From Gammaproteobacteria bacterium (GTDB lineage: Bacteria > Pseudomonadota > Gammaproteobacteria > GCA-002705445 > GCA-002716945): a stretch of DNA of 64,000 nucleotides. The stretch lies in contig JAURQW010000010.1 of the NCBI GenBank assembly GCA_030835925.1, positions 17,867 to 81,866 on the forward strand, in the 5' to 3' direction. A model generated the notes under the pieces. It searched no databases, was not told the origin of the DNA, and saw only the letters and a program-made list of their open reading frames with translations. Positions 15,008 to 21,588 of this stretch are shown here, in pieces (the first letter of the stretch is position 1; every line of letters starts with the position of its first letter). A program made the translations under genes and the position numbers.

Positions 15008-15060
15008 TAGCGAAGGAGGGAGTCGAACCCTCACGCACTTGCATGCAAGGGATTTTGAAT
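15008..15060 (-). pseudogene. 3' half of an interrupted tRNA-Leu(CAA): anticodon loop, variable arm, T arm and acceptor 3' strand
   Basis: Minus-strand read: ATTCAAAATCCCTTGCATGCAAGTGCGTGAGGGTTCGACTCCCTCCTTCGCTA. The T arm is GAGGG-TTCGACT-CCCTC. It is complementary to the 5' half at 20854-20891. Upstream sequence is not a D arm. Confidence 0.85.
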
Positions 15061-15061
15061 C
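15053..15061. repeat. 9-bp direct repeat TTTTGAATC at the left junction (target-site duplication or att core)
   Basis: Identical 9-mer at 20854-20862. Together the two copies correspond to the single anticodon loop/stem sequence of the uninterrupted tRNA. Confidence 0.8.
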
Positions 15062-15073
15062 ATTTTGAGTACA

Positions 15074-15097
15074 CTGTATGAATCGCAAACCCTTATA
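15074..15097. repeat. Left subterminal inverted repeat CTGTATGAATCGCAAACCCTTATA
   Basis: The reverse complement of 20826-20848 is CTGTATGAATCAAACCCCTTATA. There are 22 matching positions with two small indels. Confidence 0.8.
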
Positions 15098-15120
15098 TTC
15101 CAACACTTCTAGAACATCAA
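15092..15120 (-). promoter_or_regulatory. Candidate outward-facing sigma70-like promoter (TTGATG-17 nt-TATAAG) reading toward the tRNA 3' half and the PfkB kinase gene
   Basis: On the minus strand the -35 TTGATG is at 15120-15115 and the -10 TATAAG at 15097-15092, with a 17-nt spacer. It lies just downstream of the 28-bp repeat, the same layout as upstream of the island tRNA. AT-rich DNA yields such hexamers by chance. Confidence 0.25.
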
Positions 15121-15148
15121 AAAAAATGTTTGTGAAATGTTTGTGGTA
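15121..15148. repeat. 28-bp direct repeat AAAAAATGTTTGTGAAATGTTTGTGGTA (tandem AATGTTTGTG motif), left copy
   Basis: 27/28 identical to 20775-20802. The internal 10-11 bp motif is itself duplicated in tandem. Confidence 0.85.
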
Positions 15149-15224
15149 TATCTCTTATTTTCGCATCTTTTATCATTGATATAAATCTTAACAATTCTAA
15201 CATGAAAATATCATAAGAATAGTT

Positions 15225-15250
15225 TAAATAATCTACTTTAAGATTATTTA
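15225..15250. promoter_or_regulatory. Perfect 10-bp inverted repeat TAAATAATCT-N6-AGATTATTTA upstream of the first methyltransferase (possible operator)
   Basis: Read directly from the sequence. It lies 64-89 bp upstream of ATG 15314. There is no downstream T-run, so it is unlikely to be a terminator. A palindrome this size is only weakly significant in AT-rich DNA. Confidence 0.2.
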
Positions 15251-15313
15251 GGTATATTGGATATGGATAATAAAGTATAATTATTTCTATTTAATAAAAC
15301 TCACATAAGATGC

Positions 15314-16495
15314 ATGGATATATTAGTCAATTTTAAGCAAAACTTAAGTCTACCAAGACACTCATGGTTCAATATCAAAGAAGGATACAGTAGTCTATTA
15401 GTATCCAATATCATTGACGAACTAAATATTACTGATAAAGATCTGGTTCTCGATCCTTTTTCTGGTAGTGGAACAACAGTATTACATTGTGCTTTAAATA
15501 ATATTGAATCTATAGGTATAGAGGTAAATCCTTTTTTACACTTTTTATCAAAAAATAAATCATTAAATTTTAAAAAATCTCTTAAAGAAATTAGAAAGTC
15601 TATAGTAAATATTGATCTATCTGAGAGTTATGAAGAACCGCTACTATCTATTTCAAAAAAATTATTTGGAGGTCAACTAAAACAAGTACTTCAATTAAAA
15701 AAATATATCTCTAATATTAATGACATTAAAGTAAAAAACTTCTTACATACCGCATTTTTATGTAGTCTTGATTCTTGTAGTTATGCAAAAAAAGATGGCA
15801 ATGGATTACGATATCCAAAAAATAAAAAACCTAAAGATATCATCTTAGAATTTAATCAAAATGCATATTCAATGCTAGATGACATAGAAAAAACATGTAC
15901 TCTTAGAACACCAAGAATTATAAATAACAATACATTGAAGGAAATCACAAAGAAATCATTTAAAAAGCAATACTCAAATAAATTAAGTTTAATTATGTTT
16001 TCACCGCCTTATGCTAACTGCTTCGATTATACAGAGGTCTATAAAACAGAATTATGGTTTGGTGACTTTATTAAAAATTATAGTGAACTAAAAGTATTAA
16101 GAAACAAATCGATGTCATCACATCTTAATAAAGACTTTGCTAACATTAAATCTATTGAACTTATTAACTATATTAATAAATTAATTAATAAAAAATTATG
16201 GTCAAAAAAAATAATTCCTATGCTTAATAATTATTTTGTTGAATTTGAATTATTGCTAGAGAATTTATATGATTTACTAAAAAAAGAAAAATACTGTATA
16301 ATAGTTGTTGGTAATTCATCTTATGGAAATTGTGTAATTCCTACTGATATTATAATTACTAAGATTGCAACAAGAATTGGTTATTCATCTGCTAAAATTA
16401 ATGTTGTACGAAAACTAGGAACAAGTTCTCAGCAATATAAAAAAGTTGATAAACCAGATTTACTTCGTGAGAGTATAATTTACCTTCAAAAATAA
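15314..16495 (+). CDS. DNA methyltransferase (N6-adenine/N4-cytosine type; motif I precedes motif IV)
   Basis: 393 aa. SAM-binding LDPFSGSGTT is at nt 15452-15478 and the catalytic SPPY (MFSPPYANCFDY) at nt 16001-12. About 150 aa between the motifs and about 160 aa after them could hold a target-recognition region. Confidence 0.8.
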   Translation: MDILVNFKQNLSLPRHSWFNIKEGYSSLLVSNIIDELNITDKDLVLDPFSGSGTTVLHCALNNIESIGIEVNPFLHFLSKNKSLNFKKSLKEIRKSIVNIDLSESYEEPLLSISKKLFGGQLKQVLQLKKYISNINDIKVKNFLHTAFLCSLDSCSYAKKDGNGLRYPKNKKPKDIILEFNQNAYSMLDDIEKTCTLRTPRIINNNTLKEITKKSFKKQYSNKLSLIMFSPPYANCFDYTEVYKTELWFGDFIKNYSELKVLRNKSMSSHLNKDFANIKSIELINYINKLINKKLWSKKIIPMLNNYFVEFELLLENLYDLLKKEKYCIIVVGNSSYGNCVIPTDIIITKIATRIGYSSAKINVVRKLGTSSQQYKKVDKPDLLRESIIYLQK

Positions 16496-17196
16496 TGTTA
16501 AAACTTAATAAAATTTATAATCTTGATTGTTTAGATGGACTTTCTAAGTTAGATGATGAATCAATTGACTTGATAATAACATCTCCACCATATAATTTAG
16601 GTAATACTCATCATACTGGTACAAAAAAAACACAATCTTATGAAGATGATATGCCAGAAGTAGATTACCAAAAATGGCAGAAGCAAGTTCTTGATGAATG
16701 TTTTCGAGTTTTAACTCCTGTGGGTTCAATGATTTACCAACATAAGAATCGAATAAAAAAAGGACTTCAGATATCGCCTTACGAGTGGATATTTAAAACA
16801 AAATTTATTGTTAAACAAGAAATTGTCTGGATAAATAGGAGTCAAAATTTTGATAAAATTAGATTTTATCCCTTTACAGAGAGAGTATATTGGATGACTA
16901 AAAACAGTAAGATTAAACTCAAGAATACAATTAATAAACAGGATGTCTTTGATTGGACTGAATGGAGACCTGTAGGCACTAAGATGCAACATACGAGAGC
17001 ATTCCCAGAAAAACTGGTGTCAGATATGCTCGCAGTATTTCCAGATGCAAAAATAATATTAGATCCTTTTTTAGGTTCTGGGACTGTTGCTTATGTAGCA
17101 AAAAAACTTAAGAGAGATTATATAGGGTTTGATATTGATAAAGATTTCGTAAAACAAGCAAGATCAAGATTAAGAAAAAAAGATTTATTCGATTAA
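16495..17196 (+). CDS. DNA methyltransferase, beta-class N4/N6 (motif IV precedes motif I; N6_N4_Mtase-like)
   Basis: 233 aa. IITSPPYNLG (nt 16582-93) lies near the N-terminus and LDPFLGSGTVAYVAKKLKRDYIGFDID (from nt 17062) near the C-terminus. TAATG stop/start overlap with the upstream MTase. Confidence 0.85.
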   Translation: MLKLNKIYNLDCLDGLSKLDDESIDLIITSPPYNLGNTHHTGTKKTQSYEDDMPEVDYQKWQKQVLDECFRVLTPVGSMIYQHKNRIKKGLQISPYEWIFKTKFIVKQEIVWINRSQNFDKIRFYPFTERVYWMTKNSKIKLKNTINKQDVFDWTEWRPVGTKMQHTRAFPEKLVSDMLAVFPDAKIILDPFLGSGTVAYVAKKLKRDYIGFDIDKDFVKQARSRLRKKDLFD

Positions 17197-19869
17197 TATA
17201 ATCTTATTTTTAATTTTATTATGTTTAATTTTATCTGGGAATATTTGTTCCATATGTTTTGCAAAATAACCAAAATCATCTTTCCCTAAATTCAGAAAAG
17301 TTTCTAATTTAATGAAATTAATACCAATTAGCTTGAGTTGATCAGAAAATTCATTATTTAAACTGTCCACATAGTCTTTTGAATGTTTCTCATTAGACAT
17401 CATTATATCCAAATCTTTATTTTGATCTCTTATATATTTAATTCTTGCACAACATTTTTCAAAAGATTTATTATCAACATTTTCACAAATAGTAATTCCC
17501 CATAGAAACTCAACACGATTTATCTCTTTTACATTTTTCAAGACATTCATAGAAAAATTATATGGGAACCATGTAATATTATTCATTTTTTTTAGCATGT
17601 TAATAATCATATACTTGAATTGTTTTTCGGTATTATTATTAGCATATCTTTGTCCTTCTGTAGTTAGAGTAATTATATTATCAGTATGGTCTCTTATCAT
17701 TCCTGCTCGATAAGCATATGGTATAAGATTATTGTCAATTTTTTTATTATGAATATCACTATATTTCTTTTTAACGTCTGATTTTGTTAATTCTTCTTTA
17801 GAAAATACCCCAATTCCTTTATCAATTAGATTTTTCCATCCAGCAAATGCCATTCGTACAATATTAAATTTTGTTTTCGAAGAAACTATCTTTTCTGTAC
17901 TAAGTGTTTTTTTTAGTAATTTTATTTTTCCAGAATTTAATTTTGCAATTTCAAGTCTAATATTCTTTGAAATATTCTGCATGTTAATATCTTTATGATA
18001 AGATTTTACCTTGATTTTTCCACCTCCATTAGGGGTAGCAACTGATGTTGATAAATTAATCTTATCAATTTCATCTTCTAAACTTTTATCATGCGCTTTG
18101 ATTGCTTCAATTATTTCAAAAACATGTAAGAACTTTTTCCGATTATATTTTTTATCATATTTATCAATAATTATAGGAATAAATATTTTAGCAATCTTAT
18201 TTGGTCTATCTTTAGGTATTCTGAGACATCTTCCTACTGCTTGAACAATATCTATAACAGATTGTCTTCTTTCCGCGAATACTACACAATCTACATCTGG
18301 CACATCTATTCCTTCAGTAAGACATTTTGCATTAGTTAGAACTGCTTTTTTGGAATTCCTGAATTCTGACATTATACCTTTTCTAGTATCATCAGTTTTC
18401 TTTGAACTTATGGAGTCTACAAAATAATCCTTATTCTTAGTCAAATGGGATATTGCATTTGCTTTTGTATTTGCAGAGTTAATGCTATTAGTAAATACTA
18501 ATATTTTATTAGTGGAATAATTATCAATAAGTTTTTTAATTCCATCTGCAATTATCAAATCAAAGTTTTGAAACTTTTCGTTCTCAATTAAAGTATGTTT
18601 ATCAAGATGTAATCTACCTAAATCATCATCATATATTTCAATAATTATTTCATAATCAGCAATTACCCCTGCGTCTATGGCATCTCTGAATGAGTAGTGA
18701 TGGAATTCATTCCCATAATCATCTGTATCATCCATAGAATAAAAATCTAAACTCTCTATTTCTGCACTTGCTTTAATATTAGGTTTTAAAACTCTTGGTG
18801 TTGCAGTCATGAATAATTTCTTCTTAGTTAGTACATTAAAGCATGATTGATACTTCCTTTTTGCTACTCCGGCGGTTCTATGCGCTTCATCAATAAATGT
18901 TAAATCAAACTGAATTGATTTAGATGCTTCTAAGACTTTTGGTAAAGAATCATACGTAGATAAAATAACTATTGAGTCATCTATTTCAAGGAAATTTTTT
19001 ATTACTTGAGGATCAGTTGTATAATATGTGCCTAATTCACTCAGATCAATATCATAACGATCATCATCACTATCTGGTTTAAAAGAACTAACAACACAAA
19101 GAAATTTAAATTCTTTAGATCTGTATTTCAACCATTCATCTATAGTTTGTTTTACAAGATAGATACTTGGTACAACGAAAAGCGTTTTTTTACACTCAAG
19201 TTCTTCTTTTATCAGTAAAGAAGTAATAGTTTTACCTGTTCCACATGCAGAGATAAATTTTCCTTTATTTGTATGTTTAAATCCATCACATACATCATTT
19301 ACAGCAGTAGTCTGGTAAGATCTTGCTTCAAGTTTGTTACGTATGATTTCTTTATCTTGAATATATGCGGTAAGATTTTGGAAAAATAACTTATTTAGAA
19401 TATCTAAATCATTAAAAAGAATCACTCTAGGTATTTTTTGATTGTCTTTAAAGAATTCATGAGATATAGTTTTTACATTCGAAAATACATACCATCCGTC
19501 AAGTCTCTGACCTACTTGATATGATGTCATAAGTTTGTCAGCACCAATCTTTCTGTTCGACATAAACTTTGTCTGATAATTAAATATACTACCATCAGAG
19601 TGTATAACAATACCGTCACATCCACGTTCTTTTCCACTTTTAGGTTGTAAATTATATTTATTTTTTAGACTTTCTGGTATTTCATCAAAATGGTAGATTT
19701 CTTTTATTTGATATTTATCCTTATTTAAAAAAAAGTAAATGTAATTAAAATATTCAAATAAATCACCTTTATATGTTGTATCACCAATATTAGATAACTT
19801 ATCTTCTAATTCAGAAAAATTATTAAACTTATTTTTAATAAAGAAATCTTTACATTTAATAGTATTCAT
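17185..19869 (-). CDS. Mrr-like (PD-(D/E)xK variant) nuclease fused to an SF2 DEAH helicase/translocase (Type ISP / HsdR / Res-like), with an uncharacterised ~300-aa C-terminal region
   Basis: 894 aa. The N-terminus reads KGDLFEYF...ERGCDGIVIHSDGSIFNYQTKF (Mrr-type FE...D-G-[IV]...Q-x-K). Helicase motifs are ARSYQ, ACGTGKT (I), FIDEAHR (II), MTATP (III), TEGIDVPDVD (V) and QAVGRCLR (VI). The 3' end overlaps the MTase gene convergently by 12 bp. Confidence 0.85.
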   Translation of the reverse strand: MNTIKCKDFFIKNKFNNFSELEDKLSNIGDTTYKGDLFEYFNYIYFFLNKDKYQIKEIYHFDEIPESLKNKYNLQPKSGKERGCDGIVIHSDGSIFNYQTKFMSNRKIGADKLMTSYQVGQRLDGWYVFSNVKTISHEFFKDNQKIPRVILFNDLDILNKLFFQNLTAYIQDKEIIRNKLEARSYQTTAVNDVCDGFKHTNKGKFISACGTGKTITSLLIKEELECKKTLFVVPSIYLVKQTIDEWLKYRSKEFKFLCVVSSFKPDSDDDRYDIDLSELGTYYTTDPQVIKNFLEIDDSIVILSTYDSLPKVLEASKSIQFDLTFIDEAHRTAGVAKRKYQSCFNVLTKKKLFMTATPRVLKPNIKASAEIESLDFYSMDDTDDYGNEFHHYSFRDAIDAGVIADYEIIIEIYDDDLGRLHLDKHTLIENEKFQNFDLIIADGIKKLIDNYSTNKILVFTNSINSANTKANAISHLTKNKDYFVDSISSKKTDDTRKGIMSEFRNSKKAVLTNAKCLTEGIDVPDVDCVVFAERRQSVIDIVQAVGRCLRIPKDRPNKIAKIFIPIIIDKYDKKYNRKKFLHVFEIIEAIKAHDKSLEDEIDKINLSTSVATPNGGGKIKVKSYHKDINMQNISKNIRLEIAKLNSGKIKLLKKTLSTEKIVSSKTKFNIVRMAFAGWKNLIDKGIGVFSKEELTKSDVKKKYSDIHNKKIDNNLIPYAYRAGMIRDHTDNIITLTTEGQRYANNNTEKQFKYMIINMLKKMNNITWFPYNFSMNVLKNVKEINRVEFLWGITICENVDNKSFEKCCARIKYIRDQNKDLDIMMSNEKHSKDYVDSLNNEFSDQLKLIGINFIKLETFLNLGKDDFGYFAKHMEQIFPDKIKHNKIKNKIILIE

Positions 19870-19905
19870 CTAAATATTTTGGCATATTATGCATTACAAT
19901 GATAT

Positions 19906-20600
19906 ATGATCAAATTTAAAAACTTAGAACTTATTAAATCCTTATATGCTTATCAGAATGTTAAAATTACTGAGATTGTTGATTCTTATGACGACGCTAT
20001 CTTGTGTAGAAAAATATTAAGTAAAAGTTATAATTGGAGTTTACATGATACTCAACAACTCAATAATATATTAAAAAACACAAGTCATCATTCAGATATA
20101 AGAAATAATAAAGAATATGCGTTTAATATAATTACTAACTGGTTAATAGAAGACTTAATTTATGAAACACTAAGCATAGATTATGGAGTTACAAAAAAAT
20201 AGGATCTGATAATAATAGAAAACTACTGAATGGAAGAAATATTACTTCTGAACCTGATCTCTTAATCTCTTTAAAGAATAATATTATGATTGAAATTATT
20301 GCTAATTATCCCATAAAAGATTATTCATCATTTTGGGAGAAAGAGTTATATTTTGATTTAAGAGATAATAAAATGAATTCATTGCTAGATAGATGTAAGA
20401 CAAATAGAGTATTGATTATTGGCGTTGTTGTTGAAAAAAAACAGATTTTTATTATGGAGATTAATTCTGATACATCATTTCAACAAATCAGAAGTGAATC
20501 AAATTTTGGTTTCAAAAAAACATCTAGAATACACTTTCATGGCAGAAAAATAAAGTTGTATCCTATCTCGTCTCTTAATACAATTATAAGAAATATCTAA
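19906..20600 (+). pseudogene. Hypothetical ~231-aa ORF interrupted at an A7 tract (halves 19906-20202 and 20166/20286-20600); weak PD-(D/E)xK-like pattern
   Basis: ORF1 ends ...GVTKK-TAG immediately after A7 (20193-20199). The frame of ORF2 is open from 20166, and a -1 shift in the A-run joins them: ...VTKKIGSDNNRKLLNGRNITSEPDLLISLKNNIMIEIIANYP... The pattern E(LIEDL)...PD...IEI is reminiscent of restriction nucleases but has no clear lysine. Confidence 0.5.
20193..20199 (+). other. A7 homopolymer / A_AAA_AAA slippery heptamer directly followed by TAG
   Basis: In ORF1 frame the codons are aca aaa aaa tag. A -1 slip, or an A7-to-A8 change, continues in the frame of 20286-20600. Confidence 0.6.
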
Positions 20601-20637
20601 ATACCACATATCTTTTTTACTATTCAATAAAAACTAA

Positions 20638-20721
20638 TACCGATAATCAGAATCGAACTGATACTCTCTTGCGAGAATCGGATTTTGAATCCGACGCGTC
20701 TACCTATTCCGCCATATCGGC
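20638..20721 (-). tRNA. tRNA-Leu (anticodon CAA), intact, carried inside the island
   Basis: Minus strand: GCCGATA-TG-GCG-GAATAGGTAGA-CGC-G-TCGGA-TTCAAAA-TCCGA-TTCTCGCAAGAGAGT-ATCAG-TTCGATT-CTGAT-TATCGGT-A. It has the class II long variable arm. All stems pair (1-72 is G-U). No CCA is encoded. Confidence 0.9.
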
Positions 20722-20732
20722 ATTAGTCATTT

Positions 20733-20760
20733 ATCATACCAAAAACACAAACATTTTGAA
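20733..20760 (-). promoter_or_regulatory. Candidate promoter of the island tRNA-Leu (TTCAAA-16 nt-TATGAT)
   Basis: On the minus strand the -10 TATGAT at 20738-20733 lies 11 nt upstream of tRNA position 1. The -35 is at 20760-20755 and overlaps an inverted AATGTTTGTG motif copy (20746-20757). Confidence 0.35.
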
Positions 20761-20774
20761 AAGGCGTATGCACG

Positions 20775-20802
20775 AAAAAATGTTTGTGCAATGTTTGTGG
20801 TA
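20775..20802. repeat. 28-bp direct repeat AAAAAATGTTTGTGCAATGTTTGTGGTA, right copy
   Basis: 27/28 identical to 15121-15148. An additional inverted copy of the motif (CACAAACATTTT) is at 20746-20757 and a partial copy (AATGTTTGG) at 20915-20923. Confidence 0.85.
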
Positions 20803-20825
20803 ATTATTGTCTAATACTCAATAGG

Positions 20826-20848
20826 TATAAGGGGTTTGATTCATACAG
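20826..20848. repeat. Right subterminal inverted repeat TATAAGGGGTTTGATTCATACAG
   Basis: Reverse complement matches 15074-15097 (see the left copy). Confidence 0.8.
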
Positions 20849-20853
20849 TTTTG

Positions 20854-20891
20854 TTTTGAATCCCTCGTGTCTACCATTCCACCACTTCGCC
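20854..20891 (-). pseudogene. 5' half of the interrupted tRNA-Leu(CAA): acceptor 5' strand, D arm, 5' anticodon stem and loop
   Basis: Minus-strand read: GGCGAAG-TG-GTG-GAATGGTAGA-CAC-G-AGGGA-TTCAAAA. It pairs with the 3' half at 15008-15060. Positions 20854-20862 are the 9-bp repeat TTTTGAATC. Confidence 0.85.
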
Positions 20892-21147: not shown

Positions 21148-21588
21148 TTAGTTATTTTTTTTTGCTGATCTAGCTCGTTTAGCCATTTCAGGCGAATATG
21201 CCTCACCTGACCACAGCATACTGTACACAATTTCTTCGTTACCATTTTCACAGACATCTATTACTTTTTGAAATAATGGTTGAAATGTATCACTTTTATG
21301 AGAATTTTCATGATCTTCATATGTTTTCCAAAAAGTTATTATCAAAGCTTCACGATCTTTAAGGTCAGATTCTAAAGCCTTGCCTATATTACTACCTTCA
21401 TTCGAGATTTGGCCACTGTTTAGAACTACCATACCACCTATAAAGCCTGTATCTGAGTGATAAGTTTTTACATTTTCACACATCAGCGCTACTCTTTCCT
21501 GAAGGTCATCGAGCGTATACTCTTTTTTCAAAATTACGCGATTAATTGTAACAATGCCGTCAAAAGGAAAATTATTTATTAAACTCAT
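21148..21588 (-). CDS. Hypothetical protein, possibly ABM/ferredoxin-like alpha+beta barrel domain
   Basis: 146 aa with non-repetitive composition. The segment LIITFWKTYEDHENSHKSDTFQPLF resembles ABM-domain proteins. The functional call is weak. Confidence 0.4.
   Translation of the reverse strand: MSLINNFPFDGIVTINRVILKKEYTLDDLQERVALMCENVKTYHSDTGFIGGMVVLNSGQISNEGSNIGKALESDLKDREALIITFWKTYEDHENSHKSDTFQPLFQKVIDVCENGNEEIVYSMLWSGEAYSPEMAKRARSAKKNN

Follow-up and report, generated by a model that had tools for sequence, protein, structure and literature searches.

A host tRNA-Leu(CAA) gene, here designated A, is split into two halves that lie 5.8 kb apart on the same strand of the window, by which we mean the whole 64-kb (64,000-nucleotide) stretch of DNA that was analysed. 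The segment between the halves (15062-20853) is probably a site-specific insertion into the anticodon loop of A, derived from a family of integrase-less cassettes that docks at tRNA-Leu(CAA). Within this 5.8-kb insert lies a second, intact tRNA-Leu(CAA), designated B.

A host tRNA-Leu(CAA) gene interrupted at its anticodon loop

The window is AT-rich (~31% GC), and the genes outside the insert are housekeeping genes in gammaproteobacterial order: gyrA, aromatic amino-acid genes, cmk, rpsA, lapA, lapB, pyrF, and a PfkB kinase gene, followed by queA, tgt, yajC, secD, secF, and isc genes. ARAGORN called 2 tRNAs in total, one of which is B. The two parts of A lie at the edges of the insert, next to the PfkB gene (3' half) and a 65-aa open reading frame (ORF) (5' half):

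15008-15061 (minus strand): displaced 3' half of A, spanning the anticodon loop through discriminator A73; no difference from the 3' part of the uninterrupted tRNA at L003, L005, and other empty sites
20854-20891 (minus strand): displaced 5' half of A, opening with core copy 3 at 20854-20862; likewise no difference from the corresponding 5' part at empty sites

Rejoined, these halves give exactly the intact 83-nt tRNA found at empty sites L003, L004, L005, L010, L030 (NCBI GCA_038101125.1), L031, and L032. At these sites, and on one 29-kb JGI contig, the same flanking genes enclose an uninterrupted A within a 164-bp gap, and the flanks of the window are 98.8% and 99.4% identical to those of L003. 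The split halves and the intact empty sites together bear out a claim made in an earlier note on this DNA, namely, that the host gene is interrupted without being regenerated; what adjoins the 5' half of A is non-tRNA sequence, and the island does not restore the disrupted gene. Misassembly was considered as the source of the split and rejected, because independent assemblies cover both the left junction (L001/L033 and L034) and the right junction (L006/L011, L012/L022, and L013).

A 146-aa protein encoded in the flank (window 21148-21588) has >4,300 homologues in marine metagenomes, which suggests that the host clade is very abundant in the ocean. Some of these homologues are named "ligand-binding protein SH3" and come from metagenome-assembled genomes (MAGs) labelled Gammaproteobacteria.

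The ends of the insert

Both junctions, as well as the anticodon loop of B itself, carry the same 9-mer, TTTTGAATC (15053, 20683, and 20854). The earlier note had proposed a 13-bp core in three copies. The full 13-mer occurs only at 20680; at 15050 it is matched with one mismatch, and at the third site not even with two, so the shared crossover core is 9 bp and not 13. The sequences adjoining the core at the two ends of the insert are organized as follows:

15053-15061: core copy 1 at the left junction, TTTTGAATC, made up of the anticodon loop and 2 stem nucleotides
15062-15148 (plus strand): left-end module LE1 (repeat family D4), with spacer ATTTTGAGTACA, a 24-nt inverted-repeat arm at 15074-15097 (CTGTATGAATCGCAAACCCTTATA), and a 28-nt direct repeat at 15121-15148 (AAAAAATGTTTGTGAAATGTTTGTGGTA)
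20722-20853: right-end module RE131, with a promoter-like TTCAAA-16-TATGAT element (20760-20733, minus strand), a direct repeat at 20775-20802, an inverted-repeat arm at 20826-20848, and spacer TTTTG

The left and right copies of the 28-nt repeat are 96% identical and in direct orientation, and the motif occurs twice in the 64-kb window versus 0.02 occurrences expected. The outer ~55 nt of RE131 is an inverted copy of the start of LE1, whereas its repeat part is in direct orientation. Three diverged variants of RE131 (window/L017, L016/L029, and L021) are homologous from end to end, with a mean column identity of 77% compared to 93 to 99% identity of the host flanks. Three copies of AAATGTTTG, two direct and one inverted, flank or overlap the promoter-like element of B at window positions 20733-20802; all are kept in the three RE131 variants, with the inverted copy in the tRNA-proximal part. 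A scan also flagged a hairpin at 20769-20790, within RE131.

An LE1-type module follows every displaced tRNA half in the related contigs L021, L026, L028, and L024. A second, short left-end type (~35 nt, GACTTCGnGTACAnnnnCCCACAnTTT) was seen after some tRNA halves in L024, L025, L027, and L029. In L024 (reverse-oriented, ~100-330 and ~1111-1330), a second TTTTGAATC core stands between this short end and the standard left end that comes after it, so that the short end looks like a stub left by a different kind of element. At one cassette junction of L026 (6577-6600), TTTTGAATCA, which is the 9-nt core plus one base, occurs twice in tandem.

Possible links between these ends and known recombination sites were also considered. 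An exact 21-nt motif, ATGTTTGTGAAATGTTTGTGG, lies between a tyrosine integrase gene and a 3'-end tRNA fragment in the viral contig L014 (5773-7200, 5840-5925), which is unrelated and has only this motif in common with the island. A relaxed form of the repeat motif gave 10 further matches in viral contigs, in coding-like sequence and with no tRNA gene; as these are plainly chance matches, the occurrence in L014 may be due to chance as well. With this single integrase-linked occurrence, the identification of the ATGTTTGTG repeat as a known integrase arm site was kept as a weak lead only. A reading of the left end as a Xer/dif site was also dropped, since the match by eye of ~13/22 arm positions to Escherichia coli dif was too weak.

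Cargo of the insert and search for a recombinase

The cargo encodes proteins of restriction-modification (R-M) type, along with a gene of no recognized family:

15314-16495 (plus strand): DNA methyltransferase, 393 aa (Pfam N6_N4_Mtase; PADLOC MTase_II, 1e-73)
16495-17196 (plus strand): DNA methyltransferase, 233 aa (Pfam N6_N4_Mtase, 1.8e-33; PADLOC MTase_II, 6e-40)
17185-19869 (minus strand): restriction-type helicase-nuclease, 894 aa, with ResIII and Helicase_C domains (Pfam, 2.6e-23 and 1.9e-18)
19906-20600 (plus strand): 230-aa gene without family match, frameshifted in the window; intact alleles P0004 and P0006 in L016-L020

At the family level, the R-M cargo consists of two methyltransferases and a ResIII helicase with a type IIG-like N terminus, the nuclease partner being a candidate only. 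The N-terminal 415 aa of the 894-aa helicase-nuclease match the PADLOC model for type IIG restriction enzyme-methyltransferases (1e-67). The 230-aa gene had no match in Pfam, NCBIfam, or PADLOC and is rare, with two clusters among 5.8 billion proteins. In the window, an AA insertion in an A-run at 20193-20194 leaves ORFs of 98 and 104 aa; the sequence differs from the intact allele by 2 substitutions and this 2-nt insertion, and the frameshift is also present in L012. We considered whether either ORF might be a small recombinase and rejected this, as they are two pieces of one frameshifted gene.

No recombinase (integrase, transposase, or excisionase) was found in the island or in the tested window ORFs with Pfam, NCBIfam, or PADLOC, and the same three collections revealed no recombinase domain in related cassettes and contigs. 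The tyrosine integrase that the Islander definition places beside the attachment site is thus missing, with no Phage_integrase match in the island, the tested window ORFs, or the related cassettes, and no excisionase was found in the island or related contigs. None of the ~50 contigs examined is an integrase-bearing relative at the same site, and a circular (attP) junction of the window insert had no match in IMG/VR.

The island-borne tRNA-Leu(CAA)

The intact tRNA gene begins 132 nt inside the right junction (the earlier note gave 133 bp):

20638-20721 (minus strand): intact element-borne tRNA-Leu(CAA) B, identified by ARAGORN, Rfam, and cloverleaf fold; its anticodon loop holds core copy 2 (20683-20691)

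The presence of an intact class II tRNA-Leu(CAA) inside the island, as first proposed from the letters of the sequence, is supported by an ARAGORN call (20637-20722, minus strand), an Rfam tRNA match of 59.7 bits at 20638-20721, and a fold into a clean class II cloverleaf with anticodon CAA. B possesses the features of a class II tRNA-Leu(CAA): a long variable arm, the CAA anticodon, G18G19, and discriminator A73. Like the broken gene, it lies on the minus strand, an orientation that had been described correctly, as had the differences between A and B in the acceptor stem, variable arm, and T arm. At 68% identity to A, B is not a duplicate of it.

In an alignment of A, B, the tRNA variants B' and C, and a hybrid tRNA in L017, 99.2% of cells pair according to the cloverleaf, and 14/24 pairs show both-sided changes; no shuffled or slid control came close. 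The acceptor stem of B differs from that of the L016 tRNA at 6 nt, which amount to three fully compensated pairs, and the 70-nt core of B is identical across many samples. B is thus structurally sound, and it may be expressed and charged with leucine. The promoter-like TTCAAA-16-TATGAT element to which the earlier note had pointed is indeed present at 20760-20733 on the minus strand, with a TG preceding the second hexamer, but such sites are no commoner in the stretch upstream of B than in shuffles.

Two relatives of B are less well formed. The L017 hybrid has mismatched acceptor strands, with one A-G mismatch, and could be either a recombinant or an assembly chimera. In L015, positions 1-2423 hold a diverged, pseudogenised copy of the same R-M island in which the helicase gene is fragmented; its tRNA B is degenerated by many changes and gave no ARAGORN call, and the coverage of this contig is low (1.46x).

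The description of B as a foreign gene holds in part. B is foreign to the strain, yet it resembles tRNA halves circulating in sister lineages. The combination of G1.U72 and A73 with no encoded CCA is common to all variants and to D and E, which are native tRNAs in two other species. A search of 185,579 species representatives for a donor returned a sole exact match, L021, itself an island-bearing strain of the same group. A phage origin was rejected: by blastn against 50,697 phage genomes, the best match to B was 75% identity over 77 nt, and exact scans of IMG/VR for B, for a C-type half, and for the left-end junction had no matches. The shared G1.U72/A73, the lack of an encoded CCA, and the empty phage searches argue for an origin of B within the pool of the clade itself, as opposed to a distant donor or phage.

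Occupied sites and cassette arrays in related genomes

Relatives of the insert were collected with an exact 30-mer from inner B (searched in one genome per species and in JGI metagenomes) and by look-ups of the island proteins. This yielded about a dozen informative contigs, all of them short metagenomic ones, in which repeats are possible chimera points.

The same host site is occupied by different content in different strains. L016 carries the same R-M genes and 230-aa gene as the window, but another variant of the tRNA and of the adjoining 131 bp. In L021 (MAG Gammaproteobacteria bacterium LRMED-303), the left end is the same and A is likewise split, but the only cargo gene is one for a TylF-type methyltransferase, and the tRNA is of B type. 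L029 has the different, short left end, zero cargo, a tRNA, and a split A. In all four fully read occupied A sites (window, L016, L021, and L029), a matching 5' half of B and the 131-bp module lie between the cassette 3' half and the stranded 5' half of A, which indicates that the whole tRNA is element-derived. As three diverged versions of the tRNA plus 131 bp are found at the same host site, replacement is a recurrent outcome and not an accident.

The cargo of the window and that of L016 are 99.7% identical, whereas RE131 is clearly diverged and the acceptor stem differs, which places a breakpoint inside the tRNA. The 5' acceptor strand tracks the module variant: variant 1 has GCCGATA, whereas variants 2 and 3 both have GCCACCA. 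The 3' strand tracks neither cargo nor module: the same R-M cargo occurs with TATCGGT in the window and with TGGTGGT in L016 and L017. The strands match each other in the window and in L016. Among contigs, the 5' and 3' halves of B co-vary independently, and the best reading of B is as a composite of two element-borne parts joined at the anticodon loop: a 5' half with the promoter-like element and the inverted end module, and a cassette 3' half.

A typical cassette has a conserved left end of ~100 nt and one to four genes, most of them for anti-phage defence, together with a tRNA-Leu(CAA) 3' half that extends from the acceptor end to the anticodon loop. The clearest array is that of a sister species (L026), whose flanks are about 72% identical to those of the window. 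From the PfkB side, it reads:

L026 unit 1: 3' tRNA half, left end, 460-aa NOV_C/EVE protein
L026 unit 2: 3' half, left end, 469-aa MORN-repeat protein
L026 unit 3: 3' half, left end, 282-aa MORN-repeat protein
L026 unit 4: 3' half of B', left end, 328-aa NucS-like nuclease
L026 end of array: intact tRNA-Leu(CAA) C, ~36 nt from the apparent start of the host small ORF

Each unit has one gene between the conserved ~100-nt left end and the ~50-nt tRNA half, and C is intact and in its native position adjoining the host small ORF. This array shows ordinary 3'-end regeneration, four times over, and it is only in this sister-species array that regeneration of the target tRNA was seen.

Similar arrays with other cargo, encoding no recombinase, were found in L024, L025, L027, and L028. 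Their cargo is as follows:

L024, L025, L027, and L028: Eco57I-type enzyme, Mrr-helicase, HNH nuclease, Schlafen/AlbA_2 protein, and T5orf172 protein

Further cassettes have split B' at its loop. In L023 and L025, a new left end with type I R-M-type genes comes directly after the end of a TylF cassette and the B' 3' half; in L025, these are three large genes in hsdM/S/R order, the type I label coming from a reading of the translated N terminus. In L026 and L028, it is the standard left end with a NucS-like gene that comes after the B' 3' half, the same NucS-like cassette standing behind different neighbours in the two contigs. The cassette 3' halves of B, B', and C are 80 to 93% identical among themselves and 57 to 65% identical to the 3' half of A.

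A possible route to replacement of the tRNA gene

When a cassette enters a compatible tRNA gene, its 3' half would join the resident 5' half and so regenerate the gene, and the old resident 3' half would be pushed outward at each integration, allowing arrays to grow. By direct reading of the sequences, the 5' acceptor strand of A (GGCGAAG) cannot pair with either cassette 3' strand (TGGTGGT or TATCGGT), and a plain cassette in A would therefore leave a tRNA with a broken acceptor stem. The insert in A would also bring the 131-bp module, with its promoter-like element and a matching 5' half, so that a functional tRNA B would be entirely element-derived, with both halves of A stranded at the ends of the insert. 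B in turn becomes a site at which more cassettes dock. Read in the direction of the tRNAs, this part of the window runs A 5' half, core, inverted end module with the promoter-like element, B 5' half, core (the anticodon loop of B), B 3' half, cargo, left end, core, and A 3' half.

A tyrosine-type recombinase, supplied in trans, would presumably catalyse recombination at the 7-nt loop with its symmetric flanking stem, and the end repeats would be its putative binding sites. The parts could have arrived in one step, on a circle carrying intact B with the expected junction ...GATTCATACAGTTTTGTTTTGAATCATTTTGAGTA..., or in two, with the 5'-half module and the 3'-half cassette arriving separately. 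Among the related contigs, neither a 3'-half cassette alone in A (junction ...GAGAATCGGATTTTGAATCCCTCGTGTCTACC...) nor a 5'-half module alone in A (junction ...GCAAGGGATTTTGAATCCGACGCGTCTACC...) was observed. Homologous recombination via the conserved tRNA and end modules could also explain part of the cassette shuffling.

We put forward, tentatively and as a possibility that we would not call probable, that tRNA-Leu(CAA) is the platform of an integron-like system in an abundant group of marine gammaproteobacteria with streamlined genomes. In such a system, a trans-acting recombinase would insert small defence cassettes at the anticodon loop in two mirror-image forms (3' half plus cargo and 5' half plus promoter) that are jointly able to replace the whole tRNA gene, leading to its repeated turnover.

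Other readings of the locus

The earlier note saw in the insert a single self-contained island whose complete foreign tRNA is a deliberate means of disruption and replacement, one that would make the host island-dependent. The intactness of B, its orientation, the promoter-like element, and its presence at every fully read occupied A site are in keeping with this, and TTG makes up 1.4% of host codons, so UUG decoding is required. As an outcome, disruption and replacement stand, and they recur; as a strategy of a self-contained island, they do not, because no recombinase or other mobility gene is present and the cassette family normally regenerates the 3' end of its target, as in L026. The halves of B also act as separate modules. 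We thus regard a self-contained device as unlikely. The dependency argument is weakened further by the decayed island copy in L015 with its degenerate B and by the L017 hybrid with its mismatched acceptor stem. Uninterrupted A alleles are common in the same population, which implies that loss or absence of the island is tolerated at the population level. Moreover, UUG is usually also read by tRNA-Leu(UAA) carrying a modified U34, and strict dependency of the host on B (addiction) is unlikely.

It might also be argued that no site-specific recombination takes place at present, that A was split once, anciently, and that the locus is a flexible genomic island swapped by homologous recombination via the flanks, the tRNA, and the end modules. 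The failure to find a recombinase in the window ORFs tested or in related contigs would fit such swapping, as would the shuffling of cargo and end-module combinations with breakpoints inside the identical 70-nt tRNA core, and replacement islands are documented in marine bacteria, as cited in 10.1101/2020.12.28.424599. What makes this account improbable in our view is the precision of the junctions, whose position in the loop does not vary across the three tRNA types A, B', and C, and the opening of every cassette with the same ~100-nt module. The presence of the same NucS-like cassette behind different neighbours (L026 and L028), the three diverged RE131 variants at one junction in hosts that are at least 93% identical, and the extra tandem core copy (TTTTGAATCA) at one L026 junction also speak against it. 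Finally, B could be a non-functional passenger, an attachment-site remnant in a host that decodes UUG otherwise, in which case nothing has been replaced. Its decay in L015, the mismatched acceptor pair in L017, and a promoter-like element at chance level all point that way. We give this reading little credence, given the perfect cloverleaf of B with G18G19, A73, and a class II variable arm, the identity of its 70-nt core across many samples, and the three acceptor pairs fully compensated between B and B' beside 99.7% identical cargo.

Possible turnover of tRNA-Leu(CAA) among sister species

Genes for tRNAs are normally far more conserved than adjacent protein-coding DNA. At the orthologous locus, species whose flanks are 72 to 78% identical hold tRNA-Leu(CAA) genes that are only 62 to 76% identical. 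L035-L043 carry tRNA-Leu(CAA) D (e.g., L035 10720-10802) in opposite orientation to the flanks, and L044-L048 carry a further, very different tRNA-Leu(CAA) at the same locus (e.g., L045 10768-10851). An alignment of the L035 and L045 flanks (hosts of D and E, 78%) breaks exactly around the tRNA.

Comparison of these loci is in keeping with repeated replacement of the tRNA-Leu(CAA) gene, of which the window would be an intermediate caught in the act. Such turnover, if true, would account for the very different, and even inverted, tRNA-Leu(CAA) genes of sister species. The usual rule is that an element integrating into a tRNA gene restores the gene that it cuts. What would be new in relation to this rule is that the cut gene is broken on both sides and that a different allele, built of element-borne parts together with an upstream module, takes over. 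This would represent a route for the horizontal replacement of a core translation gene and a possible cause of strong tRNA divergence among related species. Ordinary mobile elements are scarce in genome-streamlined ocean bacteria, and a compact, recombinase-free cassette format, if borne out, would stock defence genes in these abundant organisms. The left-end module and the tRNA-half junctions provide sequence signatures with which such cassettes could be mined and their recombinase sought.

Comparison with known systems

Full-text literature searches found no published description of this arrangement, although many of its elements have counterparts. Integron arrays are composed of mostly co-oriented one-gene units, each with a structured recombination site and no recombinase inside the units, and some carry defence genes. 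The cassettes described here likewise form arrays of mostly co-oriented one-gene units that each end in a structured site, free of recombinase and with defence cargo, but the analogy is functional only: no integrase was found, there is no IntI, attI, or attC, and the repeat units are tRNA gene halves and conserved end modules instead of attC sites.

It is standard for tDNA islands to integrate at the anticodon loop, to displace gene fragments, and to accrete in tandem (PMC4383910, PMC8371274), and the anticodon loop and stem form a natural tyrosine-recombinase site (PMC8371274). Compared with tyrosine-integrase tDNA islands (sublocation classes of Williams 2002; Islander, PMC4383910), the insert shares a tRNA target, an anticodon-loop crossover flanked by a symmetric stem, a gene fragment displaced to the far end, a short direct repeat at both junctions, and the formation of tandem arrays. 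In contrast to these islands, that of the window lacks an integrase and does not rebuild the host gene on the resident 5' part and promoter. Instead, A is displaced in both its halves, and its role passes to a complete tRNA that is element-derived and has its own upstream module.

Tandem integrations separated by partial tRNAs are known from Prochlorococcus tycheposons and from additive flexible islands (10.1101/2020.12.28.424599; PMC10872708). These resemble the present cassettes in their streamlined marine hosts, their tRNA-anchored hotspot with partial-tRNA repeats between units from successive integrations, the pushing of older elements inward by newer ones, and their defence cargo. Unlike the cassettes, tycheposons carry their own tyrosine recombinase and replication modules; no tycheposon-type recombinase, replication module, or packaging module was seen in the cassettes examined, which are units of one to four genes with a conserved ~100-nt end and about half a tRNA each.

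Elements without an integrase that are mobilised in trans have been described as CIMEs (PMC5704250). Like CIMEs and other integrase-less elements moved by accretion (PMC5704250, PMC6323972), the cassettes have flanking attachment sites, carry no recombination genes, and stand in tandem at a shared site. They differ in being much smaller and more numerous, in having a tRNA half as the attachment site, and in that no cognate integrase-bearing element was found at this site among the ~50 contigs examined.

The only described element that carries the 5' part of a tRNA belongs to the pTN3-like archaeal integrases, whose attB is a tRNA 5' half (PMC8371274). That system is archaeal, encodes its own integrase, and restores the same tRNA sequence, whereas here the 5' half comes from a different allele. 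Besides the replacement of the cut gene, the locus thus differs from these systems in the very small size of its cassettes, which lack a recombinase, carry half a tRNA plus a conserved end, and are integron-like in function, and in a possible mirror-image 5'-half module, for which the archaeal pTN3 group is the only described parallel.
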